IMG/VR virus record: IMGVR_UViG_3300044214_000008
Span: 1 to 28,036 of that record
Direction: 5' to 3' (one strand)
Length of the DNA stretch: 28,036 bases
DNA from: a virus
Taxonomy: Duplodnaviria > Caudoviricetes
Positions within the stretch are counted from its first letter, which is position 1, and the number at the start of each line of letters is the position of its first letter. The position numbers and the translations under genes were made by a program. This document shows, piece by piece, positions 1 through 28,036 of the stretch. A model generated the notes under the pieces. The model worked only from the letters and a program-made list of their open reading frames with translations. It made no database searches and was not told the DNA's origin.

Positions 1-42
1 ATTAATTGCTGCCCTCACGGATTCTAACTCGTCTGGAGTTAA
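1..42. repeat. 42-bp terminal direct repeat (left copy), probably assembly circularisation overlap
   Basis: attaattgctgccctcacggattctaactcgtctggagttaa at 1-42 is identical to 27995-28036. Confidence 0.97.
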
Positions 43-290: not shown

Positions 291-434
291 TTAGTTTACA
301 ACCCAATTATATAAGCTGATCAGTGCCCATGCTGCCAAACCAATCTGTGCCAGTGTTAAAAAGAAGTTTACCATAATCAAGTTCTCAATTTTTAATTTGA
401 GTAATTCCTCTTCTGTAACTTTTACCTTAAACAT
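291..434 (-). CDS. Small single-pass membrane protein, 47 aa
   Basis: Hand translation: MFKVKVTEEELLKLKIENLIMVNFFLTLAQIGLAAWALISLYNWVVN*. GGAG SD; start overlaps the end of the upstream ORF; hydrophobic C-terminal half. Confidence 0.75.
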   Translation of the reverse strand: MFKVKVTEEELLKLKIENLIMVNFFLTLAQIGLAAWALISLYNWVVN

Positions 435-702
435 TATTTTCTCCAATTGCTATGTAACTAAAGTCTTCAGTATTAAATCTCTGATTTAATCTATCTACTT
501 GATGTTGTGCTGTTGCTTGTGTATTGTAGAGCATTTTATTGTATTTGAATTGTGGTCCCGCCATTTGATGATGGTGACTGCGTATTCCCACTGGTTTGTT
601 TTTGTAAACTATCATGTAAACTGCTGGGCTGCTGGTAATGTCCCAAATGACATTATTCTCATCAGCACATGTTTCTATAATTTTAGGTCCTGGTCTTGCC
701 AT
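427..702 (-). CDS. Conserved-looking phage hypothetical protein, 91 aa (MARPGPKII...)
   Basis: ORF track 427..738. ATG at 702 preferred because GAGGA SD precedes it and it avoids overlap with 704..919. Confidence 0.8.
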   Translation of the reverse strand: MARPGPKIIETCADENNVIWDITSSPAVYMIVYKNKPVGIRSHHHQMAGPQFKYNKMLYNTQATAQHQVDRLNQRFNTEDFSYIAIGENNV

Positions 703-1531: not shown

Positions 1532-3168
1532 ATGAGCCCTTTCAACACTGTGACCGTGGGTTTTTCTTGTCGTTCATCAAGCCAATTGTGTAATCCCAGC
1601 ACTCTACCGGCATCATCTTTATTAAGATAAACATTTTCATTATAGGATCTTACTACGCGACCATTCACCGAATTGTTTACCAACATTTTCCCTTGTCCCT
1701 CTTGAGCGTTTAATTGCCAACTTTGGCGTTCACCATAACGCCATCCCACAACCAAACCCCGGGCAACTTGATCAGTCAAACCCGCAATAAATTTATTTCT
1801 ACCCAAAACACCACGATTATTGTAATGCTGTTTACCAATTTCCTTATAAACAATGTATAAATCATCCATCATAAATGCCAGTGGTTTATGATCATAATCC
1901 GCCAATAAAACTGTTTCAATAAGTTGATCCAAAGGGCTCTTATGTGCTTCCACCATTCTATCAAAAGCCTCACCATGATATGCGGCTACAGGACGATCCT
2001 CTTTAATTTTGGCCAGCAAGTAGCCTAACCAAATGCTTAAGTTTCCATCTGTAAAATCTTCCTGCACAAGTCGATCCCAAGCCGCTTTGTATTCAGCTTC
2101 ATCCTTTTTATCGTATATTTGATTCTTGCGTTTAGCCATCCAATAAAACAAATCTTTAGTATAATGTATGGCGCTGATTCGTCGTGTTGTGCTATCATTG
2201 CTGATACTGAGTGGTCCGCCTGCTCCCTGTCCACTGACATGTAACCACATAATATTGGGAACACTAACTACATCACTATAAAGTTTCTTCATGAGAAAGT
2301 CTTTGTTACCCGCAATACTCTTAAAACGATCGTAGTCTGATTTACTGTCAATGGTTTCATCCACCAGCACACATACTTTACCCAATAGCATAGCAGGGTT
2401 TTCAGTCAAGGTCTTAAAGTTGGTTACTGCACAGGACTTCTTAAAGATCTTACTGAGTATGTGTGTATTAAGTTCATTTTTACCCACACCCCCTTGTCCA
2501 AACATCAGTAAATTTGGGATTTTGTAATCACCGGGATGCCTATATTTTCTAACAATACATTCCTCCAAGTGATCTCTAATTTCAATGTCACCAGCACTGA
2601 GACTTTCCATGAGTAAATCAATACCCTGGGGACATTTATATGTTTTTACTATACCCGTATATTCCTGGGCTTTTAACCAATTATCACTTACACCCTGTGC
2701 CAAATTAAATGTAGTTTCCGGACAGTAACCAAAAGTAAATGTGTAATCAAGATAATTTCTATTTTCCTTTTCCAATAGGGAATGGAATATATTTTGTTCA
2801 GTTTTATTTTGGAACCTAAAGATCTCACGATCTATTTGTGTTAAATCTCGTGCGTGGTATTCATCGTTTATTTTAACCATGTAACCCTTTTGCCCAATGA
2901 TCTGCTTAACATCAAATTGATTAATTTTATCCAATAATATCTCCGCTATTCTTGCACTGTATTGTTCGCTACTTTCTATTTCAGCTTGTATCTTTGCTGA
3001 TTTAATTTGTTGTAATTCTTCAACTAAGGCAGTTACTCGATCACTGGCCTGTTTAACCAATTCTTGATTCTTACCGCTGGTTTCATCTCGTCGTAACTTA
3101 TTATGTGCATCTGCCAGTCCTTTCCTGGCTGCTGTTAATTCAGGCCTAACTATATTTTCATCTCTCAT
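1525..3168 (-). CDS. Superfamily 3 (D5/P4-alpha-like) replicative helicase
   Basis: Walker A FGQGGVGKN, Walker B VLVDE, FKSIAG...MKKLY motif, TTRRI arginine finger, probable winged-helix C-terminus. Overlaps the primase stop (ATGA). Confidence 0.85.
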   Translation of the reverse strand: MRDENIVRPELTAARKGLADAHNKLRRDETSGKNQELVKQASDRVTALVEELQQIKSAKIQAEIESSEQYSARIAEILLDKINQFDVKQIIGQKGYMVKINDEYHARDLTQIDREIFRFQNKTEQNIFHSLLEKENRNYLDYTFTFGYCPETTFNLAQGVSDNWLKAQEYTGIVKTYKCPQGIDLLMESLSAGDIEIRDHLEECIVRKYRHPGDYKIPNLLMFGQGGVGKNELNTHILSKIFKKSCAVTNFKTLTENPAMLLGKVCVLVDETIDSKSDYDRFKSIAGNKDFLMKKLYSDVVSVPNIMWLHVSGQGAGGPLSISNDSTTRRISAIHYTKDLFYWMAKRKNQIYDKKDEAEYKAAWDRLVQEDFTDGNLSIWLGYLLAKIKEDRPVAAYHGEAFDRMVEAHKSPLDQLIETVLLADYDHKPLAFMMDDLYIVYKEIGKQHYNNRGVLGRNKFIAGLTDQVARGLVVGWRYGERQSWQLNAQEGQGKMLVNNSVNGRVVRSYNENVYLNKDDAGRVLGLHNWLDERQEKPTVTVLKGLMK

Positions 3169-4208
3169 TTTATATTCCTATACTTAAATTGCTTAAATGT
3201 TGGCCTTCTCATGTCAGCCAAGACATCTACTTTTTTATTCTCTCGTTTGGGCTCTATACCGTTATGTGCTTTAATAAACTCATCACGCTTGTCAGCTCTA
3301 ATTCTATCACTGGTCCAACTAATCCAGGCATTTCTGCGTGTATGGGGATTCATTAACTGGCTATCTGCACTGGCTATTCTTTGACAAATATTATCAAACT
3401 CGTCATAACTACAACCGATACTTTTACATATACTAACCAAAGTTAGCACACCCAAATTATTGGCACCTTGCCCAGCATAGTGTAATCCACTGCAAGTCAG
3501 CAGGCTTTTTATAATGGATTCCTTATATTGTGCAGCCTGTTGTGATGTTAATGTAGTTGTGTTATCTCTAACTGGTTCCACATATACTTTAGGTGCCCTA
3601 TACTCAAAATCATTATAGGGATCCAACATGTAACCTTTGTTGTGATAGACAATGGGATCATTGGAACCACTATGGAAGTAAAAACTTTGGCTCAGCGTAA
3701 AACTTGCATGATCCACCAAAGGATACCTTTCTATAATGCTGGCTTGTCTACCCGCAATATCCTGCGCCAATAATGGTTGACTAAAAGGTATTACAATCCT
3801 AAATTTATGCCGATTAAATGTATGACGGAATGTGGTGTAAAGGACATATTCAATTGATTGGAATGTAGCCATGGCTTCTTCCAGTGTCATATTCTCATCC
3901 ACATCCAATACGATGCCTGTGAGGCTTATCACATTATTTTTACAACGCCTAACAGTATTGGGTATTTCGTCATAAGCCCCGGTGGCGTCTCTAACAAACA
4001 CCCCATCTATCACGGTGCCTTTATAACGCCTACCCTGTTCTGCATCTGGGCCTGCTTGCTTAAACTCCGCCATGTTAAACATAAGAACATCTTCCTTACG
4101 GTCGGCAGGATGATGGCGCATTAATAGCTGTGCAATATCCTGCCAGGGTAAATCCATATGCTCTAACACATAGGCTTTACCCACACTCTTAAATGTAGAA
4201 ATAACCAT
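3165..4208 (-). CDS. AEP-superfamily primase (prim-pol) with helical C-terminal domain
   Basis: GIVLDVD catalytic DxD, LYTTFRH, KFRIVIPFSQP and VDHAS motifs; adjacent to the SF3 helicase. Confidence 0.8.
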   Translation of the reverse strand: MVISTFKSVGKAYVLEHMDLPWQDIAQLLMRHHPADRKEDVLMFNMAEFKQAGPDAEQGRRYKGTVIDGVFVRDATGAYDEIPNTVRRCKNNVISLTGIVLDVDENMTLEEAMATFQSIEYVLYTTFRHTFNRHKFRIVIPFSQPLLAQDIAGRQASIIERYPLVDHASFTLSQSFYFHSGSNDPIVYHNKGYMLDPYNDFEYRAPKVYVEPVRDNTTTLTSQQAAQYKESIIKSLLTCSGLHYAGQGANNLGVLTLVSICKSIGCSYDEFDNICQRIASADSQLMNPHTRRNAWISWTSDRIRADKRDEFIKAHNGIEPKRENKKVDVLADMRRPTFKQFKYRNIK

Positions 4209-4211
4209 GGC

Positions 4212-4379
4212 TTAAAACCACAAGTCTGCTTCTGAGATTTTAATATTGTTCAGATAACAATACTGGTGTATCTCCCTAAGAACCTCGGTGATATTATTAT
4301 AAGCGTCGTTGTTAGGATAGTGCTGCAATTGTGTGGCCAATCCAATCATGGCTTCAATTAGATCTTGTTTACACAACAT
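4212..4379 (-). CDS. Hypothetical protein, 55 aa
   Basis: Hand translation: MLCKQDLIEAMIGLATQLQHYPNNDAYNNITEVLREIHQYCYLNNIKISEADLWF*. GGAG SD; fills the gap between 4369..4734 and the primase. Confidence 0.75.
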   Translation of the reverse strand: MLCKQDLIEAMIGLATQLQHYPNNDAYNNITEVLREIHQYCYLNNIKISEADLWF

Positions 4380-4734
4380 GATTGGTCTCCAGGTCAGATT
4401 CCAGTTCCTCTACAAACTGATCCAATATGGTTTGTATATCGTCTTCGCAATGCACAACTCTTACTATACTGTCTGCATTTACTAAAGGCTCCCCGGTCTT
4501 TCTATGTTTACCGGTTTTTTTAATTTTTAACCCATTGACAATGATACCAAAGCCTTCATCATACCCTTGTATGATGTCGCTCCAACGGCGAAAGTTTTGA
4601 TTACTTTCGTCCACATAAGTGTGGGCAATTTGATTGTTTGTATTGGCAAATGTAATTTCATATATTTCATTGCCGTAAATGCTTGGGCGTTGTGTGACCT
4701 TCATCACCACCCAGTTTTGGGATAGTTCTTTCAT
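4369..4734 (-). CDS. Hypothetical protein, 121 aa, first gene of the replication operon
   Basis: AGGAG SD at 4741-4745; beta-rich pattern with an acidic C-terminal tail. Confidence 0.8.
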   Translation of the reverse strand: MKELSQNWVVMKVTQRPSIYGNEIYEITFANTNNQIAHTYVDESNQNFRRWSDIIQGYDEGFGIIVNGLKIKKTGKHRKTGEPLVNADSIVRVVHCEDDIQTILDQFVEELESDLETNHVV

Positions 4735-4761
4735 ATGTAACTCCTAATTATAACATAGCAT

Positions 4762-4790
4762 ATTCTATATGTATAGTATTTATTAGTCAA
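4762..4790 (-). promoter_or_regulatory. Sigma70-type promoter with TAAATA embedded in the spacer
   Basis: TTGACT (4790-4785), 17-nt spacer, TAGAAT (4767-4762). TAAATA at 4782-4777. Confidence 0.75.
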
Positions 4791-4825
4791 GTCACTTTTT
4801 AACCGGATATGCTGCTAAAAATGGG

Positions 4826-4861
4826 AAAAAGATAAAGCCCCGGATCATTGCAATCCGGGGC
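4826..4861 (-). terminator. Intrinsic terminator
   Basis: GCCCCGGAT-TGCAATG-ATCCGGGGC (9-bp stem) followed by TTTATCTTTTT. Confidence 0.85.
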
Positions 4862-4940
4862 CTTATAAGAGCTATAACATTACCGAGAAAGGTTTTTTTG
4901 ACATAACAATTGGAGTTGATAACATCAAAGCCCTCGAAAA
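4826..4940 (-). ncRNA. Candidate small RNA A (about 105-110 nt)
   Basis: TAAATA at 4946-4941, then an ORF-less stretch with a possible stem (TTTGATGT/ATGTCAAA) presenting ACTCCAATTG, then the terminator. Confidence 0.45.
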
Positions 4941-4943
4941 TAT

Positions 4944-5162
4944 TTAGTCCTCATTATTCAATTCCTGCTGTAGTTTAGCGAACTGTCTCTGTTTAGTTTC
5001 TATTACTTCAATTAGATTCAGTTCCTTACGCAATTGGTGTAATGCTTCGGCTACTTCATGTCCTGTGGGATAGCGTTTATAAAATTCCCACATCCAAGCT
5101 AATGCTTCTGTAACGCCTTCAGGATCTGCATCAGTAATATAATAATCATATTTTGGTTTCAT
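4944..5162 (-). CDS. Hypothetical protein, 72 aa
   Basis: AGGA SD; ATGA overlap with the upstream gene; coiled-coil-like C-terminus. Confidence 0.75.
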   Translation of the reverse strand: MKPKYDYYITDADPEGVTEALAWMWEFYKRYPTGHEVAEALHQLRKELNLIEVIETKQRQFAKLQQELNNED

Positions 5163-5434
5163 CTAATGTATCCTATTGTTTGTCCATTTCGATCAGTTAT
5201 AATTCTACGACTGACACTGGCACGCCCGCCACCACACCAACTGGGCATTTGATATCCTTCTGGACGAGCCAGTTCTTTACGGCGGGCTTCATTGGTTCCA
5301 CCTGTTTGGCAGGGATCCGCTTGGTCGTAGTGTAATGCTATACGATCAAATACAGGATGTCCGGGTCCAAATGCACAACCTGTAACAGTGGCAGTTAGAA
5401 TTATGATTGGGAGTTTATTCATCATCCACTTCAT
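5159..5434 (-). CDS. Predicted lipoprotein
   Basis: MKWMMNKLPIIILTATVTG-C: basic N-region, hydrophobic core and lipobox-like VTGC. GAGGT precedes ATG 5434; the exact start is uncertain (5446/5434/5425/5422). Confidence 0.65.
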   Translation of the reverse strand: MKWMMNKLPIIILTATVTGCAFGPGHPVFDRIALHYDQADPCQTGGTNEARRKELARPEGYQMPSWCGGGRASVSRRIITDRNGQTIGYIR

Positions 5435-5609
5435 AAACGACCTCATAGTATTCTTTAATGATACGAGCCCGATACATTTCGGGTATGTTTGCTTTTGCTT
5501 CTTTCAATGAAGGATAGTATCCAACCTCATGCCACCGAGGCTCCAGTTCTTGCCCGGTCCGTCTATGTTGCCTATGCTTGAGTATTTGGACACTATATGA
5601 GAAGTTCAT
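5415..5609 (-). CDS. Hypothetical protein, 64 aa
   Basis: Coding-strand ORF with TAAATA at 5648-5643 upstream; weak SD. Confidence 0.65.
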   Translation of the reverse strand: MNFSYSVQILKHRQHRRTGQELEPRWHEVGYYPSLKEAKANIPEMYRARIIKEYYEVVYEVDDE

Positions 5610-5832
5610 AATCTTATTATGACACCTATGTAAATTATTGCCTATTTAATTCCAGCGAAAAAACCTGCTCTGCAGATACCGCGGATAGCGAAAAAACCGT
5701 TGTTTTTTTGCGATTTTCCTAAACACCCTGGTTTTGATCTATTCACTATCATGGATACATACGCAATTCTTAAGGGCCCTAAAAACGCATTATTTTTAGT
5801 AATACGGAATTACTACATAATACTTTTACCAT

Positions 5833-5864
5833 AAAAAATCCCCCAAGCGTTTCCGCCGGGGGGA
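5833..5864 (-). terminator. Intrinsic terminator
   Basis: TCCCCCCGGCG-GAAA-CGCTTGGGGGA followed by TTTTTT (GNRA loop). Confidence 0.85.
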
Positions 5865-5919
5865 CCAAGTATTAGGATACATATGAGACAAATAAATCGG
5901 GAGACTAACTTGTCATATA
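5833..5919 (-). ncRNA. Candidate small RNA B (about 80 nt)
   Basis: TAAATA at 5925-5920, just after the preceding terminator; no minus-strand ORF; contains TCTCCC and TCATATGTATCCTAAT; has its own terminator. Confidence 0.55.
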
Positions 5920-5936
5920 TATTTATCTATTGACAT

Positions 5937-5968
5937 AAGAAAAGCCCCAGGTTTGTGACCCAGGGCTT
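5937..5968 (-). terminator. Intrinsic terminator
   Basis: AAGCCCTGGGT-CACAA-ACCTGGGGCTT followed by TTCTT. Confidence 0.8.
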
Positions 5969-6018
5969 CCGAGGATAAAAAGCTACTCAAAATGGCCTAA
6001 TATTCATTGTAGCAATTT
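5937..6018 (-). ncRNA. Candidate small RNA C (about 75 nt)
   Basis: TAAATA at 6024-6019; GCTAC...GTAGC stem enclosing GGCCATTTT; linker TTTTTATCCTC; terminator. Confidence 0.5.
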
Positions 6019-6064
6019 TATTTAGCATATTAAAAACAGGTAGGCTAATCCCTGTAGTGAGTAA

Positions 6065-6622
6065 TTATGATATCACGCGATCCTCGGGATCGATATCGTA
6101 TGCTAAGGTTAAAGATTCGAGATTCTCACGAGGAGAACCAAGATGTGTTTGCATCCAGTCCCCATCATCTTCAAAATATTTACTACGGAAGTTCTCATAA
6201 TAGCCCGTTAGATACAGGTTCTCATTTTCAGTTAACACTGTGGCGTTCTTCTTACTCCATAACAATGTTTTTCTATTACGGTCTTTTTGTTCACGCTCGT
6301 TACGCCAATATATTCGAACTTGTAATGTGTGTAACCAAGCCATAAATTCTTCTTCTTGTTCTTTTGGAACATGGTAAACACTCCACCAAAACTTATCTTT
6401 CTTGGGGCGATATAAAACTTGGTTCTCAATAAACTTACATTCTATAGGATGAGTTGTATAAATTGCGTGGTTATAGTTATCGGGTTCAGGGAACTTAAAG
6501 TCACTGATCCGTTCATATGGTTTAACCCAACCAATATGACCGGAGATTGCGACCCGTGGGTCCTTAACTATTTTACTGGTGGACCCATGGATCCAAAATA
6601 TTTCTGCAAAAGGATATCTCAT
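6065..6622 (-). CDS. Hypothetical protein, 185 aa
   Basis: Long coding-strand ORF, aromatic-rich; no recognisable motif and no obvious SD. Confidence 0.75.
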   Translation of the reverse strand: MRYPFAEIFWIHGSTSKIVKDPRVAISGHIGWVKPYERISDFKFPEPDNYNHAIYTTHPIECKFIENQVLYRPKKDKFWWSVYHVPKEQEEEFMAWLHTLQVRIYWRNEREQKDRNRKTLLWSKKNATVLTENENLYLTGYYENFRSKYFEDDGDWMQTHLGSPRENLESLTLAYDIDPEDRVIS

Positions 6623-6653
6623 GTTTTAATTTATGCCAAATACTCTGCACAAA

Positions 6654-6926
6654 TTAATGGGTGATGATATACCCAATCACAGTCAATATAGCTGTAGCAA
6701 TAGTTCCGATAGTGGTAATCAACTGGATCGTTCGGGCATTACTTTGTCTTTCCAAAAGGAGTCTAAGATCACTGAACCCTGTCTGCACATCCACTTTAAG
6801 CGAAGACATTTTATCTTCCACGGTAGTGAGTCGTTTCTCGATATCATCAAACTTCTCCTCTATTCCCTTGTATCTCAGAGCGCAAATCTCCACATGAGCC
6901 GCTAAGTTACTTTCTTCTTGTGTCAT
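6654..6926 (-). CDS. Coiled-coil protein with C-terminal transmembrane helix (XhlA/holin-like architecture)
   Basis: Heptad region IEEKFDDIEKRLTTVEDKMSSLK, then hydrophobic LITTIGTIATAILTVIGYII; lies after the tail-fibre genes. Confidence 0.65.
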   Translation of the reverse strand: MTQEESNLAAHVEICALRYKGIEEKFDDIEKRLTTVEDKMSSLKVDVQTGFSDLRLLLERQSNARTIQLITTIGTIATAILTVIGYIITH

Positions 6927-7081
6927 CTCTTCTTTGCCTTTGCCTGTGCTTGAACACTGAGTGCAATCGCCACTGCTTGTCGTTGACTCATGTTTGGATG
7001 CTTCTTCATCTCAAAGGCAATGTTCTTACCCACTGCTTTTGGACTTGCACTTTTAATTAAATGTTTCTGTGTCTTTGCCAT
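6923..7081 (-). CDS. Small basic phage protein, 52 aa (QAVAIALS motif)
   Basis: Hand translation: MAKTQKHLIKSASPKAVGKNIAFEMKKHPNMSQRQAVAIALSVQAQAKAKKR*. AAGGA SD; ATGA overlap with the next gene. Confidence 0.8.
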   Translation of the reverse strand: MAKTQKHLIKSASPKAVGKNIAFEMKKHPNMSQRQAVAIALSVQAQAKAKKR

Positions 7082-7090
7082 TATTGTTCC

Positions 7091-9628
7091 TTAAACTGCT
7101 GAATTATCATGGACATAACTCCATCTTGAGTTACTGGTGTCCCAAAATGCTAACTTACCACCCGCATCACTAACTGCGGCTGTCCAACCTACTGATCCTG
7201 TAATTGCTCTTAAGGCACTTGCAGTATATGTTGGATACTTAAAGAATCCTGAACCAGAACTAATACTACCTTTAATCTGTAGATCTCCTGAATCAGTCAA
7301 TGCAAATAACATGTTTGCATAACCGCTGTCAATGATCTCCAATTGTCCTGTGTTATTCAATCGAATAAATTTACTGGTGTTGGTTGCACCACTGGTAGTA
7401 TTTGTTAAAGTCATTAGACCAGCATAACCAGCACCACCATGTGCATTGTTATTGGCAATGGTAACTTCAGGTGTAAATGTCGCAGCCGTTGCACTTAAAG
7501 ACATTCTTGTTGCAAGAGCACCAAGTGATCCACCACTTGTATTTGCCCTGGTATCGAATGTCATTGTGCTGCCACCCGCTGTGGCTGTAAAATCTTCAGT
7601 CGCTGTGGCAGTTACTCGTGCTGTTAAGTTACTGGTGCCTGTATCTGCACCATAACTACCGCCGTTGCTAACTTTAGTTCCCCAAATAGCAAATTGTCCT
7701 GCAATATCACCAGACTTAATTGCTTGTCTACGACCAGGAATACCAGATTGTCTATTACCAACAATATTAAACGCATTAGTTGCTAATAAGGTGTAGTTAT
7801 CAGGACCTGTTACAATTGTAAGTGGGCTACCACTTGAACCTGCTAATTGACTGATGCTAACTGTATAAGTTCCAGCACCACCTGTGCCAGTGCCCAGGGC
7901 AGTAATTCTTGTAAGTTGACTGATACCAGACCCATAAACCTGTTGTCCAACGCTTATAGTGCCACTACTCGGTGTTGCTGTAACTGTTAGTGTTGTGCCT
8001 GCTGAGCCAGCACCGTTATCAATATAACCAGTAAATGTTGCAGTATCCTGTTCCGTAACACCGGTAATGGTTAGGTTGTTATTGGGGAACGCACTGACAA
8101 ATCTACCATGTCCTTGATATCTTGTATTACCATCACTACTGGTTAAAATATTACCTGCCGTAGCATCACCAAAGCCCATGTTACCAACACCTGGCTGTGG
8201 AATAGTCACGCCCGCAACTGTAGTTGTGCCGGGATTTGCACCCCAGTTATTATTAAACCAACTGGCTAAACCGCCACTGTTAAGTTTAATACCTACGGGT
8301 AAACTTTGGAATAAAAATCTTGAACCTGCCGCTTTTGTGCCTTTACCAGTGAATGCGCCCGGGCTACCGGAACTGAATAATGTTTGGCTTACACTAACTG
8401 TATAAGTGCCTGCACCACCTGTGCCTGTTCCATATGCATTAAGTTGTGTGCCTGGCTGAATACCAGTAGCATCTAACAATAAGCCGGGATGCACATTGGT
8501 GCCGGCTGTAACTGTTAGGGTTGTGCCCGAAATATAACCAGTAAAACTGGCAGTGTCATTTTGGAATGCTTCGCTGGCCAGCGAATACATTCCATTTGGC
8601 GCATTGGTATTACCTGTTTCACTGGTAAAATCTGCTCCGTTATATCCACCAAAACGCACTATACCATATGTAGCACCATTAGCAACAGCACTGCCAGAAC
8701 CTGTGCTGGCAGGCAAACCTCGTTTGCCTTCAAACCATATGCTGGGTGTTGGGTTGGTAGCACTGGTGCCACCTGGACGATTTTGTCCATATTCACGCAC
8801 ATGCAATTGACCTAATTGACCACTGGTAGTATTATCTACATATAGGCTCATGGGTTTTAGGCCTTGAGTAGATACTACAATACTATTGATAGCCCCTGTG
8901 CTATCAACTGCGGCACCACCAAGTGCGGCTGTTTTAGTTGATTGAACGCCTCGACTGCCAATTAAATTACTGCTGGCTGTAACTGCATTAAATGTGACAT
9001 CACTGCTGGTGCTAACTGCTTGTCCAATACTGATTATGCCAGTAGAACTATCATAGGTTACCCCTGTGCCTGCTGAATGTGCGGCACGAGCCTGTGAATC
9101 TGTATACTGAGTAATTGTCGAACTAATAACGCCGGTTGAACTGTTATAACTGATACCTGTTCCAGCAGTTAAGGCTGCACGGGCTTGAGCATCTGTATAT
9201 TGGGTAATGGTGCTGCTGATGATGCCTGTTGCACTGTCGTAACTAATTCCAGTGCCAGAGGAGAGATTACTTCTAATTTCACCAGCACTTGCACCAGTAT
9301 AGGCAATAACTCCAGTGCTATTATTGTAAGACAGACTACCCAGACCGCTGGCATTAGATACCGAGATGGCAGCCTTTGCACGAGTGTTTGTAAAATAGAG
9401 ATTAGTAGTGCCTTCATTTAATTGGTCCGTATTAGTAATGCTGTTATTGATTTCAACGATGCCACCTGTGCTGACGGCAACATTGAGTGGTGTGCTGGTG
9501 ATAGCAATATTACTGCTGGGATTACCTACTGCAATAACCTGATCTGTAGGTGTTGTAACAGTAAAACTACTGTTGGGTTTTGTGACGGAGAAAGTGCTGT
9601 TAGGCACTGTGACATTAATTTCTGCCAT
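7091..9628 (-). CDS. Tail fibre / receptor-binding protein, 845 aa
   Basis: Gly/Ser/Thr-rich; repeated AGTGISYxSSTGxIS units; duplicated FTGYI..GTTLTVT...[16 protein letters not shown] module. Confidence 0.8.
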
Positions 9629-9637
9629 GTGTGCTCC

Positions 9638-10141
9638 TTAAACTGTAAATGCAGTGTAACCTGTCGCTGTGGTAGGATCGCCTATTGTTACACCTGGTTC
9701 ATAACTTTGAATGAATGCCCAGCGATGGCTGTTGACCTGTGTGGGAGTATCATTAGTGGTCCATTGGAATGTTACAATGCTGATAGCAACCTTACTGCGG
9801 GCATCTGGAATGACTGGGCCGGAATATAATCCACCAGGTATTGTTAGTTTAAGACTGCCAGTTGTAGCATTTACTATATTGATAACAGTCGTGTCTGTTG
9901 CATGTGTTACTGGTGCGAAATAGCCAATTACAAGGCTATTTGCAAAATTGGGTTCTCCGGTAATTCTATCCCAGGCTACGGGATCTACTACCAGTGTTTG
10001 ACTCTTTACTGAATATGTCCAATCTGTAATGTTTTGGTTAAAATTGTAAAGATATGTTCTTTTCGTTGAGGGGAAGATCTCTTCCACTTGTATGTTGTCA
10101 GGACCACCTAAGTAGTCGCTAAATCGTAATACTCCTGCCAT
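9638..10141 (-). CDS. Putative fibre-attachment/baseplate (BppU-like) structural protein
   Basis: Beta-rich 167-aa ORF between fibre genes (INIVNATTGSLKLTIP); strong AGGAG SD. Function inferred from context. Confidence 0.5.
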   Translation of the reverse strand: MAGVLRFSDYLGGPDNIQVEEIFPSTKRTYLYNFNQNITDWTYSVKSQTLVVDPVAWDRITGEPNFANSLVIGYFAPVTHATDTTVINIVNATTGSLKLTIPGGLYSGPVIPDARSKVAISIVTFQWTTNDTPTQVNSHRWAFIQSYEPGVTIGDPTTATGYTAFTV

Positions 10142-10162
10142 TTCATTTCTCCTAAAGGACGA

Positions 10163-10196
10163 GTAAAGGACACTAAGGCATCCTTTACACTATTTA
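10163..10196 (-). promoter_or_regulatory. TAAATA motif followed by leader hairpin
   Basis: TAAATA at 10196-10191, then GTAAAGGA-N10-TCCTTTAC, then the SD. Confidence 0.55.
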
Positions 10197-10200
10197 ACCT

Positions 10201-10362
10201 TTATTGATTGAGTGCATTCAGCAGAAGGGCCCGTTGTTCTTCAGTTAAACTGGCAACTACCGCCTCCATGGGATTGTCAGGTATTTCCACCTCCACTGTT
10301 TCTGAATGGATTAGATTGCCCTCTGTATCAAAAGTTTCATTTATATCTATTCTTATTGCCAT
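10201..10362 (-). CDS. Small acidic protein, 53 aa (possible fibre chaperone)
   Basis: Hand translation: MAIRIDINETFDTEGNLIHSETVEVEIPDNPMEAVVASLTEEQRALLLNALNQ*. AAGGAG SD; directly follows a fibre gene. Confidence 0.75.
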   Translation of the reverse strand: MAIRIDINETFDTEGNLIHSETVEVEIPDNPMEAVVASLTEEQRALLLNALNQ

Positions 10363-10372
10363 ATTATACTCC

Positions 10373-11752
10373 TTAGTTTACAGTCCATTTAGCAACAACC
10401 AAGCCCGGATGTCCAGCATTACTATAACTACCGTTAGTCCATGAGGCTGCTATGGCTGGTGTGCCACTGGTATAACTTACACCAGTTCTTGTCATTGCAT
10501 ATGTTGTGCCATCCGCTGTGCTCATGTTGTAGCCGTTACCAATAATAACTTGGTTAGCCATACTTCTACATTGTAATGTTCCAGTAAAGTTACTGAATTG
10601 AACAGTCATTAGATATGCACCAGCAGGTAAACTGATGCTTAAACCACTAATACTCTTAATACCTGTAGTAGTAATGTTGGATATTTCACCCGCATAGCCA
10701 CCGGATAAATTACTGGTTGGTTGCCATCCAGATGCCTTTAAGTCTACACTGGTGATATAAATCATAGCATTGCAACTGGCTAATGTTGTTGCTGTTGATA
10801 CACTGATGCCCAGTTCTGTCAGTGTGATGGGGGCAGTGACATAGAATGGATGATATCTAACTGTTTGTGCTGATATAGTTAAACTGTTACCAATGGAACC
10901 TATGTATAAACATCCAGGTGGTAGACTCCAAGGTTGGCTGCTATAACTTTCACTCTTAACTGCGGGGAGGCCGGATCCAGTGGCAGTTGCCCAGGATAGG
11001 GTGCCTGATCCGTTAGTTGATAATACTTGACCACTACTTCCATCTGCCGAGGGTAATGTATAGACTGTGCTGCCAGCAGCAGCGGCACCCTTTAAGCCAA
11101 CGCTACCACTACTGCTGCCCTTGAGGTATAATGTGCCCCCGGTATAGGCATTGCCGGGCATGGTAACATCTGTGCCGGACCAAGTAATAACACTGCTACC
11201 AGAACTATTGGCGATACTGGCACCATCTACTCTAATGCCACCACCCACTACAACGCCACCATTACTATACAATGTTGTGCCGCTACCAGTAATGGTAATA
11301 CTTTGTCCAGAACCTGCTGTAACTCCGCCATTAGCAGTGACCGTGTTAAAAGTGACATTGCTTGTTGTTGATACTGCTTGTCCAATACTAATTGCACCGG
11401 TTGTGCTATTATAAGTTACGCCAGTTCCGGCACTGATGGCTGCTCGGGCCAGTGCATCTGTGTATTGCGTAATAGTGCTACTGATAACACCGCCGGATAT
11501 CGAAATACCAGTGCCAGCAGTATAAGAACCACCGCCACCGCCTGTATTTGTTATTACACCTGTTGTGCTATCATAACTGATACCAGAGCCTGCACTGATA
11601 GCTGCTCGGGCTAATGCATCTGTATAATACTTGTTAGTGGAGCCAGCAGAGATATTGTCTGCTGTAAGTCCTGTAACTACACCAGCATCTGTGATGCTGA
11701 TGCTATTACCTATATCAATACCATTTTTTACTTTGAAATTCAAACTTGACAT
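10373..11752 (-). CDS. Tail fibre protein, 459 aa
   Basis: N-terminal NFKVKNG motif, YTDALARAAISAGxGxxY repeats, YTLPSADGSSGQVLSTNGSGTLSW fibre motif, beta-rich C-terminal head. Confidence 0.8.
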   Translation of the reverse strand: MSSLNFKVKNGIDIGNSISITDAGVVTGLTADNISAGSTNKYYTDALARAAISAGSGISYDSTTGVITNTGGGGGSYTAGTGISISGGVISSTITQYTDALARAAISAGTGVTYNSTTGAISIGQAVSTTSNVTFNTVTANGGVTAGSGQSITITGSGTTLYSNGGVVVGGGIRVDGASIANSSGSSVITWSGTDVTMPGNAYTGGTLYLKGSSSGSVGLKGAAAAGSTVYTLPSADGSSGQVLSTNGSGTLSWATATGSGLPAVKSESYSSQPWSLPPGCLYIGSIGNSLTISAQTVRYHPFYVTAPITLTELGISVSTATTLASCNAMIYITSVDLKASGWQPTSNLSGGYAGEISNITTTGIKSISGLSISLPAGAYLMTVQFSNFTGTLQCRSMANQVIIGNGYNMSTADGTTYAMTRTGVSYTSGTPAIAASWTNGSYSNAGHPGLVVAKWTVN

Positions 11753-11798
11753 AATTCATTGTCCTTATGTTAACTGATGGTTCTAACCATCCAGTGTC

Positions 11799-14700
11799 TT
11801 AAACAAAACTAATCATCTTCACACGCATGTAGATACTTGCTGATGAGTAGTCGGTTCTATTAGGGTTAAATTGTAACATAGCAGTGCCACTACCCGTGCC
11901 ACCCGCTGTTCCTACAAAAGTTCCTAATTCATTACCTGTATGTGATTTAATTCTACCATATTCCGTAATGTAAGTATTCAATGTTGATCCGGTAGCGGGA
12001 TTATAATCATGTGTTAATAATATTTCCACTACCTCTCGTTTATAGACTGTTGGACTGCTACCAACCTCACCTATTATGGTTATAATAAACTTTTTGCCAC
12101 TAAATGTTGCACCTGATTCACTATGAACCGTTGTTGCACCATAATTAGCAGTTACGCTAAAAAAGTTTTCTTTATCACTTCCCCAGTTTATACCAGCACT
12201 ACCTACTCCAGATGATACTCTTATGCTATTGAATTGAACATTGCTTGTTGTTGATACTGCCTGTCCAATACTGATAGCACCTGTGGATGAATCGTAACTT
12301 ACGCCTGTGCCACCGGAGAAGTTACCTCTAATATCACCAGCACTTGCGCCTGTATAAGTGATAACACCGGTGCTGCTATTATAAGATAGACTACCAAAGC
12401 CGCTGGCATTTGTGGTGCTAATAGCCGTTCTTGCCCGAGCATTTGTAAAGTAAAGATTTGTTAATTCCGCTAATTCACCTGTATTAACAGGAATTGTAGT
12501 GGGAACACCAGCACGATTTTGAATCCACTTACCATTATATTCATCCCATGTCAAACTACTATTAGTGCTGGTTCCTCGTTCGACTTCAATACCACTATCT
12601 GATGTAGGAGTGCCAGTAACATTACTATTCAAAGTAATAATGTTATCTTCAATTAAGACATTTTGTGTGTTTAGTGTTGTAGTTGTTCCCTGGACAGTTA
12701 AGTTTCCAGTGACAGTTAAATCTCCTGCTGTGGTAACATTTGCACCACTTAATGTAATTGCAGTCGCTGTGCTGGATTTAATATTATTACCAGATACTGT
12801 TAGATCTCCTGCTGTGGTAACATTTGCACCGGACAATGTAATTGCTGTTGCACTGCTGCTCTTAATATCATTGCCAGATACTGTTAGATCCCCAACGATA
12901 CCAAAGTTGCCTATATTATCCAAGGTTGCTTTTGATGTCTCAGCACCGGCGTTGGTAACTAAGAAGTTCATAATGAAGTTTTCAGCACCAGCAGTAATGT
13001 CGGTCGAGGATACCATAATACCACCGCCTCTTACAAAGTTATTTGCTGATGTTTCAACTTCAAAATCTGCACTAACACCAAAACCCACCGCCGGAGTTCC
13101 TGTGCTGTTTCCTCTTAATGTTACTGCTCTTGTGGCCGCATTAGTATTAGCACTATTTCTTACAATAGTAACTGGGTTAGCAAGATTACTGGTAATTGTT
13201 GTAGTAGATCCAGTGGCTGCTTGAATATTCAATGCCCCTGTCGTGTTGGTAATATCACTACCTTTAACATTAAAGTCGCCGGTAATCATTAAATTACCTA
13301 AACTATCCAATTCCAGTTGTGGACCAGGGGCAATATAACTTGGCTCAACGCCCGCAGTTATAACTGCCACTCGCATCTTAGCATCTTCACTACCAGTTGT
13401 AATGTCATCATAAACAAAGTCCATGTAACCAATAGTCTTGGTGGCGTGTGCAGCATTTTCTGCTTCAAAGGTTAGTGTAGTTCCAAATCCTGCAACAGGA
13501 GTTCCAGTAGTTGTATGACGCAATTTTAATGGCGCCATAGGATGTGTTGTATTTGAACTATCTACAACCGCATAACTTTCTGTAGTGCTGGCATTGATTT
13601 CAACTGCATTATTAGTGTCGTTGATTTTTAGGACGCTTGTCTTTTTCCAACGACTGCTATTTTCATCATAATAGATTGTGTCACCTTCAGTTGCACCATT
13701 TAAGTCAAAACCACTGTTCTCACCACCTGGATTCCAGTTAGCAGTTGGATTGCCTAAAGTGGATGCATCTGGACTGGTGAATGAACCATAACGATTATTC
13801 AGACCCATGCGTGTCTTAAAGTAATACTTTTGTCCCGCAACATTACCAGGCAATCCAGTGATATAAATTGCATGTGTCTTGTTGAAGTTAATGGTCAATC
13901 CCGTTGCATTAGTTAGTGCGACCGCATCGCCTGCTTCACTGGTAGCCACCTTAAATGCTGTGCTGGTTAAGCCAGAGGATAGGACCCAATAGATTGTATT
14001 AGTCACTAAACCACCTGCAGTTGTTCCTAAAAATAACAACTGATCACCTGCAACTAATCCATGTGCCGATGCTGTATTCAGCGTATTACCACCTGTAATG
14101 CTGGTGGCTGTTACAACTGTGGTGTTTTCATAGATAGTTGCTGGACTTGCTGGTCGATGACTTTGTAATAGAGTATAGGCTCTCTCGCTGGGTTGTCCTG
14201 ATTGTTCTGGATCTGGACCAATTGCACTCCATACTTGTATTTCATCATAGGGTCCGCCCAGTTCAGGAACGGTTGCACTTAATACCAAATATGGGATACT
14301 GGCTGTTGCATCACTATTAGCAGTAATAGTAACCAAGTTATCATCAGGAGTTTGAATGTTACCATCCGCACCACCACTGTAGATAGGAGGGATACCAATG
14401 TTAGCCTGTGTTGTAAAGTCAGTTAGTAGTTCTGTTGTGTAGATATCTGGGTTATATTCCAGTGCTTGAATGTTGGCAACCAAGTTACCATCTTCCTGCT
14501 CGATTTCTTTAACACGGATGACACGGAATAGTTTTGGATACCAGTTGTAAAGTTCGTTGGTGACTTCAATAATGTCACCTGCTTGTGTTTGGATACCATA
14601 GAAACTGCTGGTAAATTCAATTACAAGGTCATCTCTACTTTGGCGTAGTTGTATTTGACTAATCATGTTAGCCTGAATACTGTTGTTAGTTAAATCTAAA

Positions 14701-16238
14701 CCAACACGCAATGTATTGTCTGGTTCAGTTGGGTTACGATCCGCATCCGCCAATTCATCACGAGCATAGGCCTTTTGGTCTTTGTTATAACGATCAAAGA
14801 ACTCACACTCATAGGCATTATATAAGTCATCAAGACGAGTGCTACTGATGCTGATACCACTGATGATGTTATCATCATTAAACTTCAATAAGTTACCAGT
14901 TGTAGTGTAGAACTTTTGGCTGGTTAAGTTAGTGGTGCTGCTGATTGTATAACGACCTATTTGTCCTGTGCTTTCGCCTGTGGTTAATGGTAATGTCTGG
15001 CTGACAATTGAACCAATCTGTGTGCCATCTGACTTGTATAACACTTGCCCTGCTTCAATACGACCGCTGGGGAATGCAGTCACAGTTAGCGTTGTATTAC
15101 CAGTAATAGCACCAGTAAAATGTGTAGTATTATCTGCGGGATCGCCGGCACTGATTGCTTTCTGGATGATGGGACGCCATGTGCCCGCAGCCACATCAAA
15201 ACTCATCCAAGCGTTACCGTTTAATAGGATGCTATCAATGTTTTCCTTGACACTGCGACTGGTATCAATAACACCATTGATACTGGCACGGTTTTGTGTT
15301 GTGCTTGTTCCGGACTTGTCTATATAACGAATCTTTTCCGCACAGTAATTGGACCATTTAGTAAACTCTGTAGTATTAAGGGCACTGGTGGCTAAACCTG
15401 CACCATAACGATCACTGGTCATGTAATCCTGCAATACTGCTGCTGGGTTATAGACACTGTTATTGAGTTTGAATGTTACAGGGGCAAGGTTAGTAAAGCC
15501 CTTGTCCGCATTGTATTTTAATCTAACAATGGCAAATACGAGACCTTCCATGCGAGTGGAACTATTCCAAAATGCACTGCCATTAGTATCATGTGCCCAG
15601 TAATCCCAGGCATTTACCGGTGTGCCCACTCCCACGGGAGGCCATATTTGGTGGCTACTTGCACCGTCACCGGCGTAGACACGCATTTCAACCAAGTCCT
15701 GGAAGTTAGTATCCACAGTGTCATCTGTTGCATCAACAGTTTTTACACCCTTAATAACCTTATGTTCGTTTCCACTGGTGGCATCAAATATAAGTCGTTG
15801 GTCATTCCAATAAATTTCACTATTGCGGCCACCACCACTAAAAGTGCCGCTATCAATTGTATATGTTGCACTGGTATTAATTGCCTCACTTAAAACAATG
15901 CAGTAATACATGACATCGTTTTTACTTTTATCCGTTGTAATAAGTCTTGCATCAGTAATCATACCGTTTACATAGGCACTACCGTAGACCACTGGTATCT
16001 TGTTATTACTTGCAGGTGGGATCTGTATTCTACCACCCTCATTACTGGAACCCAAACTTCCTGAATTGGGATTGCCGTTGATAATACGGCTTGTAATGTA
16101 ACTTGCGCCAATAGCGGCAACACTGGCAACTGCAACACCAGCCCAACTTAATCCTACACCCGCAATGGTTGCGGCTGTTCCTGTCAAACCCAGTAAGGTG
16201 CCTGCTACATAGGCACCAATTGCTGAAAATGCTGGCAT
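11799..16238 (-). CDS. Tail tip / central fibre protein (lambda J-like tip attachment protein with fibre extension), 1479 aa
   Basis: Hydrophobic N-terminus, KIPVVYG, NPAAVLQDYMTSDRYGAGL, INGVIDT, AGDIIEVT...FRV and ALEYNPDIY motifs typical of siphovirus tip proteins; repetitive C-terminal half. Confidence 0.85.
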   Translation of the reverse strand: MPAFSAIGAYVAGTLLGLTGTAATIAGVGLSWAGVAVASVAAIGASYITSRIINGNPNSGSLGSSNEGGRIQIPPASNNKIPVVYGSAYVNGMITDARLITTDKSKNDVMYYCIVLSEAINTSATYTIDSGTFSGGGRNSEIYWNDQRLIFDATSGNEHKVIKGVKTVDATDDTVDTNFQDLVEMRVYAGDGASSHQIWPPVGVGTPVNAWDYWAHDTNGSAFWNSSTRMEGLVFAIVRLKYNADKGFTNLAPVTFKLNNSVYNPAAVLQDYMTSDRYGAGLATSALNTTEFTKWSNYCAEKIRYIDKSGTSTTQNRASINGVIDTSRSVKENIDSILLNGNAWMSFDVAAGTWRPIIQKAISAGDPADNTTHFTGAITGNTTLTVTAFPSGRIEAGQVLYKSDGTQIGSIVSQTLPLTTGESTGQIGRYTISSTTNLTSQKFYTTTGNLLKFNDDNIISGISISSTRLDDLYNAYECEFFDRYNKDQKAYARDELADADRNPTEPDNTLRVGLDLTNNSIQANMISQIQLRQSRDDLVIEFTSSFYGIQTQAGDIIEVTNELYNWYPKLFRVIRVKEIEQEDGNLVANIQALEYNPDIYTTELLTDFTTQANIGIPPIYSGGADGNIQTPDDNLVTITANSDATASIPYLVLSATVPELGGPYDEIQVWSAIGPDPEQSGQPSERAYTLLQSHRPASPATIYENTTVVTATSITGGNTLNTASAHGLVAGDQLLFLGTTAGGLVTNTIYWVLSSGLTSTAFKVATSEAGDAVALTNATGLTINFNKTHAIYITGLPGNVAGQKYYFKTRMGLNNRYGSFTSPDASTLGNPTANWNPGGENSGFDLNGATEGDTIYYDENSSRWKKTSVLKINDTNNAVEINASTTESYAVVDSSNTTHPMAPLKLRHTTTGTPVAGFGTTLTFEAENAAHATKTIGYMDFVYDDITTGSEDAKMRVAVITAGVEPSYIAPGPQLELDSLGNLMITGDFNVKGSDITNTTGALNIQAATGSTTTITSNLANPVTIVRNSANTNAATRAVTLRGNSTGTPAVGFGVSADFEVETSANNFVRGGGIMVSSTDITAGAENFIMNFLVTNAGAETSKATLDNIGNFGIVGDLTVSGNDIKSSSATAITLSGANVTTAGDLTVSGNNIKSSTATAITLSGANVTTAGDLTVTGNLTVQGTTTTLNTQNVLIEDNIITLNSNVTGTPTSDSGIEVERGTSTNSSLTWDEYNGKWIQNRAGVPTTIPVNTGELAELTNLYFTNARARTAISTTNASGFGSLSYNSSTGVITYTGASAGDIRGNFSGGTGVSYDSSTGAISIGQAVSTTSNVQFNSIRVSSGVGSAGINWGSDKENFFSVTANYGATTVHSESGATFSGKKFIITIIGEVGSSPTVYKREVVEILLTHDYNPATGSTLNTYITEYGRIKSHTGNELGTFVGTAGGTGSGTAMLQFNPNRTDYSSASIYMRVKMISFV
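12714..12892 (-). repeat. Intragenic 84-bp (28-aa) tandem repeat
   Basis: GDLTVSGNxIKSSxATAITLSGANVTTA twice plus a partial third; DNA tctcctgctgtggtaacatttgcacc at 12721 and 12805. Confidence 0.85.
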
Positions 16239-27584: not shown

Positions 27585-27996
27585 CTAATTCATCAAGTTC
27601 ATCTTCAAGATTATCCTTAATCTCATCAAGTTCATCATCGGTAAAGGGTAATACTTCTGCTTGTGTTCCTTGAGGTGTTTCGCTCTGTCCCAGAATGTTT
27701 TTACCCAGCCAGATTAACATGACTACATTTCCTGATAGTGCCGCTTTAAGTTGGGCGCGTCTAAGACTTTGCTTTAGGTTTTCTCGTCCTTTTGTGAGTT
27801 CCTCACTAAACTGATAGCGTAGTGTATTATCATTGACGCCGAACCAAGCGGCTATTTCAGTATCTTTACAGCCTAATGCTGCTAAATCCTCTACTTCCTG
27901 TGGGGGTATTACTGTATTGTTTCTACCCACCACTCGTCCCTCAACTATTTTAGTTCCCCAACGATCTTGAACTGCTTGTGTGTATTCAACTGCCAT
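27571..27996 (-). CDS. terS: Terminase small subunit
   Basis: HTH LGCKDTEIAAWFGV, GNVVMLIWLGKNILGQ motif; overlaps the terL start. Confidence 0.85.
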   Translation of the reverse strand: MAVEYTQAVQDRWGTKIVEGRVVGRNNTVIPPQEVEDLAALGCKDTEIAAWFGVNDNTLRYQFSEELTKGRENLKQSLRRAQLKAALSGNVVMLIWLGKNILGQSETPQGTQAEVLPFTDDELDEIKDNLEDELDELDAAE

Positions 27997-28036
27997 TAAT
28001 TGCTGCCCTCACGGATTCTAACTCGTCTGGAGTTAA
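27995..28036. repeat. 42-bp terminal direct repeat (right copy)
   Basis: Identical to 1-42. Confidence 0.97.

Follow-up and report, generated by a model that had tools for sequence, protein, structure and literature searches.

Three short, ORF-less units on the minus strand of a 28-kb siphophage are likely small-RNA genes that would be switched on by the late sigma factor of a co-infecting jumbo phage. One of the RNAs (C) is predicted to hit a jumbo baseplate gene, while the other two (A and B) are predicted to act on genes of the small phage itself. We assign a probability of about 0.5 to this reading as a whole.

ORF-less units in the window and in related genomes

The stretch analysed (the window: 28,036 nt, positions 1 to 28,036 of IMG/VR record IMGVR_UViG_3300044214_000008) is a whole circular siphophage genome, 100% complete, and freshwater (lake) DNA runs contain it. 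All window genes lie on the minus strand, and they encode terminase, portal, scaffold, major capsid protein (MCP), tape measure, distal tail and fibre proteins, a primase and a helicase-like ORF; one further ORF reads as holin-like from its hydrophobic C-terminus. No polymerase, integrase, repressor or sigma family was found among the 34 window ORFs scanned, and a tRNA scan of the window gave 0 hits. The MCP is 50-53% identical to those of HTVC111P-type pelagiphages and 42% identical to that of DSL-LC06. A GTDB scan with TerL for host assignment returned one 41% contig in an archaeal MAG and no host, and blastn of positions 4700-6700 against cultured phages gave chance matches of 28-35 nt only.

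Relatives were gathered from TerL and 185-aa-protein searches (79 + 32 + 14 loci), and ten whole or near-whole relatives were analysed beside the window; single-protein locus searches with the 185-aa protein or the primase gave no useful relatives. In G002, G010 and G015 the MCP is only 31-33% identical though TerL is 62-75% identical, pointing to head-module swaps inside the clade. We also observed a 304-nt non-coding, origin-like stretch behind the helicase-like gene (1221-1524), in which a ~20-nt repeat occurs three to four times together with an inverted repeat, as well as repeats of ~87-140 nt common to three fibre-like genes (7091-16238). Short pieces of these fibre-like genes weakly match jumbo fibre proteins. 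The units and the features around them are as follows.

1..42 and 27995..28036, no strand: 42-nt terminal repeat, the basis for a whole circular genome
427..702, minus: 91-aa protein, common to T4-like jumbo phages (PA5oct, Atu_ph07, many IMG/VR contigs)
4826..4935, minus: predicted sRNA A, ~110 nt, with a long stem, a 33-nt loop (4917-4885) and a seed at 4915-4901
4941..4946, minus: TAAATA motif of unit A, overlapping the stop codon of ORF 5162-4944
5833..5914, minus: predicted sRNA B, ~82 nt, with a 5' hairpin at 5914-5887
5920..5925, minus: TAAATA motif of unit B, 11 nt past the U tail of unit C
5937..6013, minus: predicted sRNA C, ~77 nt, with a 5' stem at 6013-6009/5986-5982
6019..6024, minus: TAAATA late-type promoter motif of unit C; the same motif is enriched upstream of jumbo genes
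6065..6622, minus: 185-aa protein without a known family; its homologues are directly followed by C-type cassettes

A sequence-only reading had described two back-to-back TAAATA-to-terminator units and a third one, and we found all three in place on the minus strand, the claimed spacing of about 11 nt between the unit C terminator and the unit B motif being exactly 11 nt. In unit C, TAAATA is followed by 50 nt, a GC hairpin at about 5969-5940 and a U tail to 5937; the predicted RNA carries a loop seed (6006-5991), an anti-SD tail (5977-5971) and the terminator (about 5969-5937). Unit B has 54 nt after TAAATA, a hairpin at about 5865-5838 and a U tail to 5833, and its predicted RNA has a single-stranded anti-RBS tail (5888-5866) ahead of the terminator (about 5865-5833). 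Unit A has 74 nt, a hairpin at 4866-4832 and a U tail to 4826, and it occupies the site where relatives have a large-loop RNA ('family 1'). The anti-RBS words that had been quoted for the unique segments are present, and the units gave folding z-scores of -2.8 (C), -4.3 (B) and -5.0 (A), each equalled by 0/200 shuffles. A generic terminator scan detected the unit A hairpin only, and Rfam gave no gathering-score match in the window or in eight related loci. At the sequence level each unit is ORF-less with its own TAAATA promoter motif and intrinsic terminator, and we consider it highly probable that all three are sRNA genes.

Cassettes were detected across the clade as TAAATA followed by a hairpin plus U-run within 45-150 nt with under 40% ORF cover, supplemented by motif rescue. 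We found 56 distinct ORF-less cassettes (19 large-loop family 1, 13 C-type, 7 'family 2' and 17 others), with at least one in 11/11 whole or near-whole genomes. As had been foreseen for related genomes, the scaffold of TAAATA, 5' stem and terminator is constant and the middle varies; in run X1, a second, co-occurring strain retains the unit A terminator with a replaced middle. A helix of five or more pairs begins 3-6 nt past TAAATA in 44/56 cassettes versus 16/93 other intergenic TAAATA sites, a register that is expected if the RNA begins there. In a covariation fold of six C-type RNAs, two stem pairs were altered on both sides in 3/6 sequences each and the loop was almost invariant; a MAFFT-based fold of 11 mixed C RNAs, with misaligned stems, gave no structure. 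Family-1 stems vary in like manner to the C-type stems. With a covarying 5' stem and a terminator, the cassettes would make discrete RNAs of 65-150 nt.

Anti-SD words, which had been proposed to exceed shuffled controls, occurred in 39/56 cassette bodies against 19.3 +/- 3.1 expected, and sense SD words were not enriched. Family 2 (L009:1923, L012:144, L017:1829, L019:3324, L027:4750, L030:2825, L040:2762) has a short 5' hairpin, carries no anti-SD words and gave no target. Further families (L058:1743, L059:8860, L061:7620; L121-L126) have loops complementary to ATG-CC starts, and their top jumbo gene family is an MPYT-starting gene, with L059 not beyond shuffles (21/25). At L107:1025-1450, four or five tandem ~40-nt repeats replace the cassette behind the terminator of the 185-aa homologue.

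Predicted targets of the three RNAs

Unit C is a member of the 13-member C-type family. We found no own target for it in the complete window genome, where the best start-site helix was equalled by 142/200 shuffles (36/200 with bulges allowed), and next-gene pairing in 10 C-type loci gave no signal. Comparison of the C homologues led to a predicted target composed of an SD and ATGGCC, the stem arm being looped out. A viral scan with a C-derived pattern was then followed through 120 of about 1000 stretches, and the largest protein cluster among the 120 matches listed comprised 8 loci encoding a gp53-like baseplate wedge protein (phrog_7145). This gene stands second in a TAAATA-led baseplate operon beside the late sigma. 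Among the best 80 of 591 gp53-like loci, which were confirmed and gave 70 distinct start sites, the start is highly conserved and overlaps the end of the upstream gene; this ranking by likeness to the pattern-selected protein favours MAKY starts. The overlap with the upstream baseplate gene and the MAKY codons constrain the start.

In its common version, the C loop can form 11-12 bp with positions -1 to +11 of the gp53-like start. The window C loop has different letters and pairs in register with positions -1 to +15 (15 bp) with one A-A mismatch, and its tail is complementary to the SD of the gene. Similarly, the loop of L100 fits an Asn-codon variant of the start in the same register, so that three differently worded C-type loops pair in register with the gp53-like start. 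Pairing extended at least 3 nt beyond the searched pattern in 5/8 members of the gp53-like cluster versus 2/111 other matches (1/120 matches was dropped at a contig end). Within the start sites from the best 80 of 591 loci, it did so by at least 3 nt in 57/70 and by at least 6 nt in 27/70, and the best-fitting sites lie outside the matches of the search pattern.

With loop plus tail of window C, the gp53-like start ranked 1/149, 1/104, 1/26 and 3/48 in four jumbo contigs; in the first of these (G036) it scored -30.5 kcal/mol and the next start -22.2 kcal/mol. The best C score was reached by 0/2517 background jumbo starts, and 2/100 shuffled loops equalled it over 580 starts. In the one complete jumbo tested (G019), whose gp53-like start differs, the gene came 84th of 431 with C and 356th of 431 with B. 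Of 66 jumbo gene families, gp53-like was the top one with four C-type RNAs and came second with another (these RNAs are homologous and hence not independent tests), and the family had itself been chosen with a C-derived pattern, a selection bias; family-level dinucleotide shuffles did equally well in 8/60, 7/60, 10/60, 40/60 and 30/60 cases. In a windowed scan, C-family median percentiles were only 2-52%, and two non-C RNAs also reached 2%. The C-target pattern was not enriched in 20 large records (3 matches versus 2 for the control), and a motif search in 82 jumbo loci yielded nothing recurrent. When runs X1-X4 were compared with a gp53-like locus, pieces of 33-51 nt from the middle of the gene were found in X2, X3 and X4, and none over the start, a result that weighs neither for nor against the pairing.

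Overall, we judge the chances slightly better than even that the jumbo gp53-like start is the target of C. The C loop on positions -1 to +15 and the tail on the SD would then occlude the ribosome at the baseplate gene, probably with polar effects on the genes that follow (hub, lysozyme and gp25). Fewer jumbo tails would form, and the small phage, having its own non-contractile tail, would be spared.

The predicted sites of A and B in their own genome are as follows.

441..455, minus: own predicted target of A, the SD region of a 47-aa hydrophobic ORF (434-291), 15 contiguous bp
4731..4750, minus: RBS of a 121-aa OB-fold-like gene (4734-4369), which opens the replication operon; among own sites the best fit to B
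5166..5175, minus: RBS of the 72-aa ORF 5162-4944; 10 Watson-Crick pairs with B

The fit of the A loop to the SD of the 47-aa ORF was equalled by 1/200 shuffles at start sites and by 5/200 with bulges allowed (three RNAs were tested), and A alone gave an informative outcome when whole RNA bodies were scanned for duplexes with own start sites. Against its next gene, the OB-fold-like gene at 4734, A paired no better than with non-cognate leaders (10/27; 13/30 shuffles), and the 4734 RBS fits A more weakly than B. The 47-49 aa ORF, hydrophobic in its C-terminal half, stands behind the 91-aa gene only in the window (291-434) and in G001, whose homologue lies in L146; other relatives have a different gene there. 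The G001 copy is the top own site for cassette L145rc:18136, with 53/100 shuffles as good.

For the B tail, the top three own sites are 4734, 3168 and 5162 (10/200 shuffles). B also makes 10 perfect pairs with the SD of 4/80 gp53-like starts from the best 80 of 591 loci, and the jumbo 91-aa gene family is its top match among 66, a rank that shuffles also reach (33/60, 9/25). In the search for jumbo targets, A, family 2, the L059 type and most family-1 segments stayed within the range of shuffles, the exception being a segment in L118, related to B, whose match to the jumbo 91-aa gene stood at 1/25 shuffles. These matches hint that B may also act on the jumbo copy of the shared 91-aa gene.

Where relatives have a large-loop cassette in the place of A, its pairing partner is the leader of the TAAATA-led gene that follows, with which the replication operon begins. 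In this test, for which a next gene was called for 49/57 cassettes, 15/23 large-loop cassettes stood at or below 1/30 shuffles and 18/23 beat the non-cognate mean, and only 4/23 ranked the next gene first. The family-1 seed has its partner 128-161 nt downstream in 8/20, and matched changes between RNA and next-gene leader were found in several relatives. The seven family-2 RNAs gave no next-gene signal. A search for the family-1 seed's exact complement together with an SD brought back the cassettes and unrelated matches, and no conserved foreign target. A and B would thus pair with RBSs of the replication module or of small genes of their own genome, and replication genes would be shut off late or dosed in this way. 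Across the units, antisense action is probable.

The own-target signals for A, B and family 1, together with the matched leader changes, would also be expected if the RNAs served self-regulation only, acting late in the manner of c4/sar antisense RNAs to set the timing or dose of the phage's genes and to keep out close relatives; generic SD plus ATGGC starts would then account for the jumbo match as a by-product. However, C conserves its loop with neither an own target nor a next-gene signal, and its pairing to gp53-like starts goes beyond the pattern. We consider this alternative unlikely, though to be taken seriously.

TAAATA and the late sigma of jumbo phages

We found that TAAATA is depleted in the window genome (14 sites versus 33 expected). 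Twelve of the 14 lie on the coding strand, and 10 of these 12 are intergenic or at a gene edge, before operons, in a genome with only 1478/28036 nt of non-coding DNA. Close relatives have the same strand bias, whereas the MCP-related HTVC111P (37 versus 42) and DSL-LC06 (9 versus 8) have none. In three jumbo records, TAAATA was found upstream (within 70 nt) versus inside genes at 103/11 of 426, 27/1 of 148 and 10/0 of 102, and the positions that flank it are unconstrained in the small and jumbo sets alike. Jumbo G036 encodes a 326-aa late sigma of family phrog_12791 (E 6e-84), and the jumbo late sigma adjoins gp47/gp46-like genes; the same family was present in 0/4 complete small genomes, the window included. 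PF08281 was tried as a probe for gp55 and discarded as the wrong one.

The consensus of T4 gp55-dependent late promoters is TATAAATA, and Ogr of P4/P2 is a precedent for using a helper's late activator. According to the account of T4 late transcription drawn on here (PMC7892883), late promoters consist of a lone -10-like box that gp55 recognises, and transcription from them is activated by, and normally also needs, gp33 and the sliding clamp. The sites described here are alike in having a single -10-like AT-rich box with no -35 conservation (PMC7892883), but they stand in a phage in which no late sigma gene was found and their conserved core is the hexamer TAAATA.

A second tie to the jumbo phages is the 91-aa protein, which linked the small phage to the jumbo clade before the target search. 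It is kept throughout the small-phage clade and also occurs in the jumbo phages PA5oct, Atu_ph07 and Phosso and in about 5600 IMG/VR stretches; TAAATA precedes its gene in PA5oct and Atu_ph07. In T4-like jumbo phages it is a core protein, with copies at L165:8001-8294 and L166:8001-8294. Its structural model is confident (pLDDT 92) and had no PDB match at Z 5 or more; that of the 185-aa protein (pLDDT 57) was too poor for a structure search. The 91-aa protein is a candidate late-transcription factor or a candidate interferer with the helper's copy.

TAAATA marks operon starts in the small clade and gene starts in the sigma-encoding jumbo clade, and the small-phage promoters would fire only if a co-infecting jumbo phage supplies the late sigma. 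This distribution makes it fairly likely that late transcription of the small phage is helper-dependent; a hidden phage factor or a host factor may read TAAATA instead. Sigma70-like promoters overlap TAAATA at the replication operon in the window (4762-4790) and at the equivalent positions in L017 and L043; the replication genes would also be read from these, which suggests dual early and late control of the operon. A further intergenic TAAATA (5648-5643) heads the small-ORF operon 5609-4944; of the loci searched, L040 is the only one with a homologue of ORF 5446-5159 from this operon.

If a host sigma or an unrecognised phage factor read TAAATA without any helper, the sRNAs might instead target host mRNAs with generic SD plus M-A-K starts. 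The anti-SD enrichment is target-agnostic, the phage encodes head, tail, terminase and primase-helicase itself, and several conserved proteins, including those of 91 and 185 aa, have no known function, all of which agrees with such a reading. Yet TAAATA marks gene starts in the jumbo clade that encodes a late sigma, and its strand bias is absent from HTVC111P and DSL-LC06; we regard host targeting as distinctly unlikely.

Other readings and known systems compared

The units might act as structured, protein-binding RNAs (sponge or decoy), as attenuator-like leaders or as a peptide-coding unit. The family-1 seed can form a small hairpin and pair inside its own RNA, the lack of anti-SD words in family 2 points the same way, and unit A has a possible 17-codon ORF with a weak SD buried in the stem. 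Against this, the substitutions in the C loop preserve pairing to one mRNA site, and no SD-led sense frame closes inside B or C, leaving the idea improbable. Still less probable are ordinary 3'-UTRs and tandem terminators with chance TAAATA and no RNA genes: C and A do lie directly behind ORFs in 3'-UTR positions, as the unit C terminator is the first after the 185-aa gene (6622-6065) and the unit A motif overlaps a stop codon, and their hairpins double as operon terminators, but B follows a separate terminator, as do C homologues in seven relatives (L008, L104, L112, L113, L119, L127, L142), for which a 3'-UTR is therefore no explanation, and the promoter-to-stem register is fixed and the 5' stems covary.

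The reading that we prefer, sigma-triggered antisense RNAs, has its closest parallel in a satellite. PLE of Vibrio cholerae, which encodes SviR, is an integrated satellite that uses ICP1's structural proteins. In the portion of the SviR report that we draw on (bioRxiv 10.1101/2022.04.08.487710), this RNA is helper-induced, occludes the RBS of ICP1 gp120 and regulates PLE transcripts too. Like the units described here, SviR is intergenic and ORF-less and ends in a rho-independent terminator, and it has its own helper-induced promoter (bioRxiv 10.1101/2022.04.08.487710). Its target gp120 is described there as a late, putative structural helper gene, and the predicted C target is a baseplate gene of T4-like jumbos. 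By that account SviR is one RNA of 160-300 nt that hits helper and own transcripts, whereas here several predicted RNA families of 65-150 nt occur in tandem, each behind a T4-type late motif, and the predicted targets are split (C jumbo, A and B own). Unlike PLE/PICI/P4-type satellites, the window phage has terminase, portal, scaffold, MCP, tape measure and tail genes and no integrase family match.

P4 CI RNA presents in a loop a sequence that pairs around the RBS of a phage gene. The same is described for the P1/P7 c4 and P22 sar antisense RNAs in the section of PMC12197685 used here, and, like c4 as outlined there, family 1 and unit A share a strand with their predicted own target and lie upstream of it. 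In contrast to c4, the targets here are not antirepressors: the next gene after family-1/A units is OB-fold-like or varying, the window has no integrase, repressor or antirepressor family match, and C is without an own target. The Rfam c4 model had no match up to E 10 in 4000-7200 and 0 gathering matches in the eight related loci. The units lie outside the c4 family and outside virion-less satellites, and most likely they would work like helper-induced, SviR-like sRNAs of a jumbo-dependent phage.

HTVC111P-type pelagiphages and DSL-LC06 resemble the window in genome size and structural gene order but lack the TAAATA strand bias, and the terms 'promoter' and 'small RNA' occur 0 times in the main text of the DSL-LC06 paper (PMC10611076). 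Six supplementary files of Fremin et al. 2023 (PMC10690425) contain none of 6 motif words; files 1, 2 and 4, which lie outside that search, may list the RNAs as unnamed candidates. We found no description in the published literature of these cassettes or of a TAAATA-using small phage. The earlier suggestion of an undescribed RNA-based interference system nevertheless goes too far as to kind, since SviR is a satellite sRNA that regulates satellite and helper mRNAs. What holds of the proposed modular antisense set that silences specific mRNAs is the constant scaffold with varying middles, a predicted foreign target for C and predicted own targets for A and B.

Extended to the family, the picture is tentative and falls somewhat short of an even chance: a widespread clade of ~28-32 kb tailed phages that make their own virions, borrow the jumbo late sigma and carry swappable, sigma-triggered sRNAs against conserved jumbo virion gene starts (the gp53-like baseplate gene, possibly also the 91-aa copy) and their own replication operon. 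If true, these phages would parasitise a jumbo-phage clade that ranks among the most abundant (two marker genes give about 2800-5600 IMG/VR stretches), with a new type of dependence that concerns transcription only and leaves them their own capsid and tail. sRNA warfare between mobile elements, so far exemplified by SviR alone, would then take in several RNA families whose targets can be named, an RNA-based phage-on-phage interference whose targets would be readable from sequence. The seeds could then pair small phages with their helpers in metagenomes, much as CRISPR spacers do.
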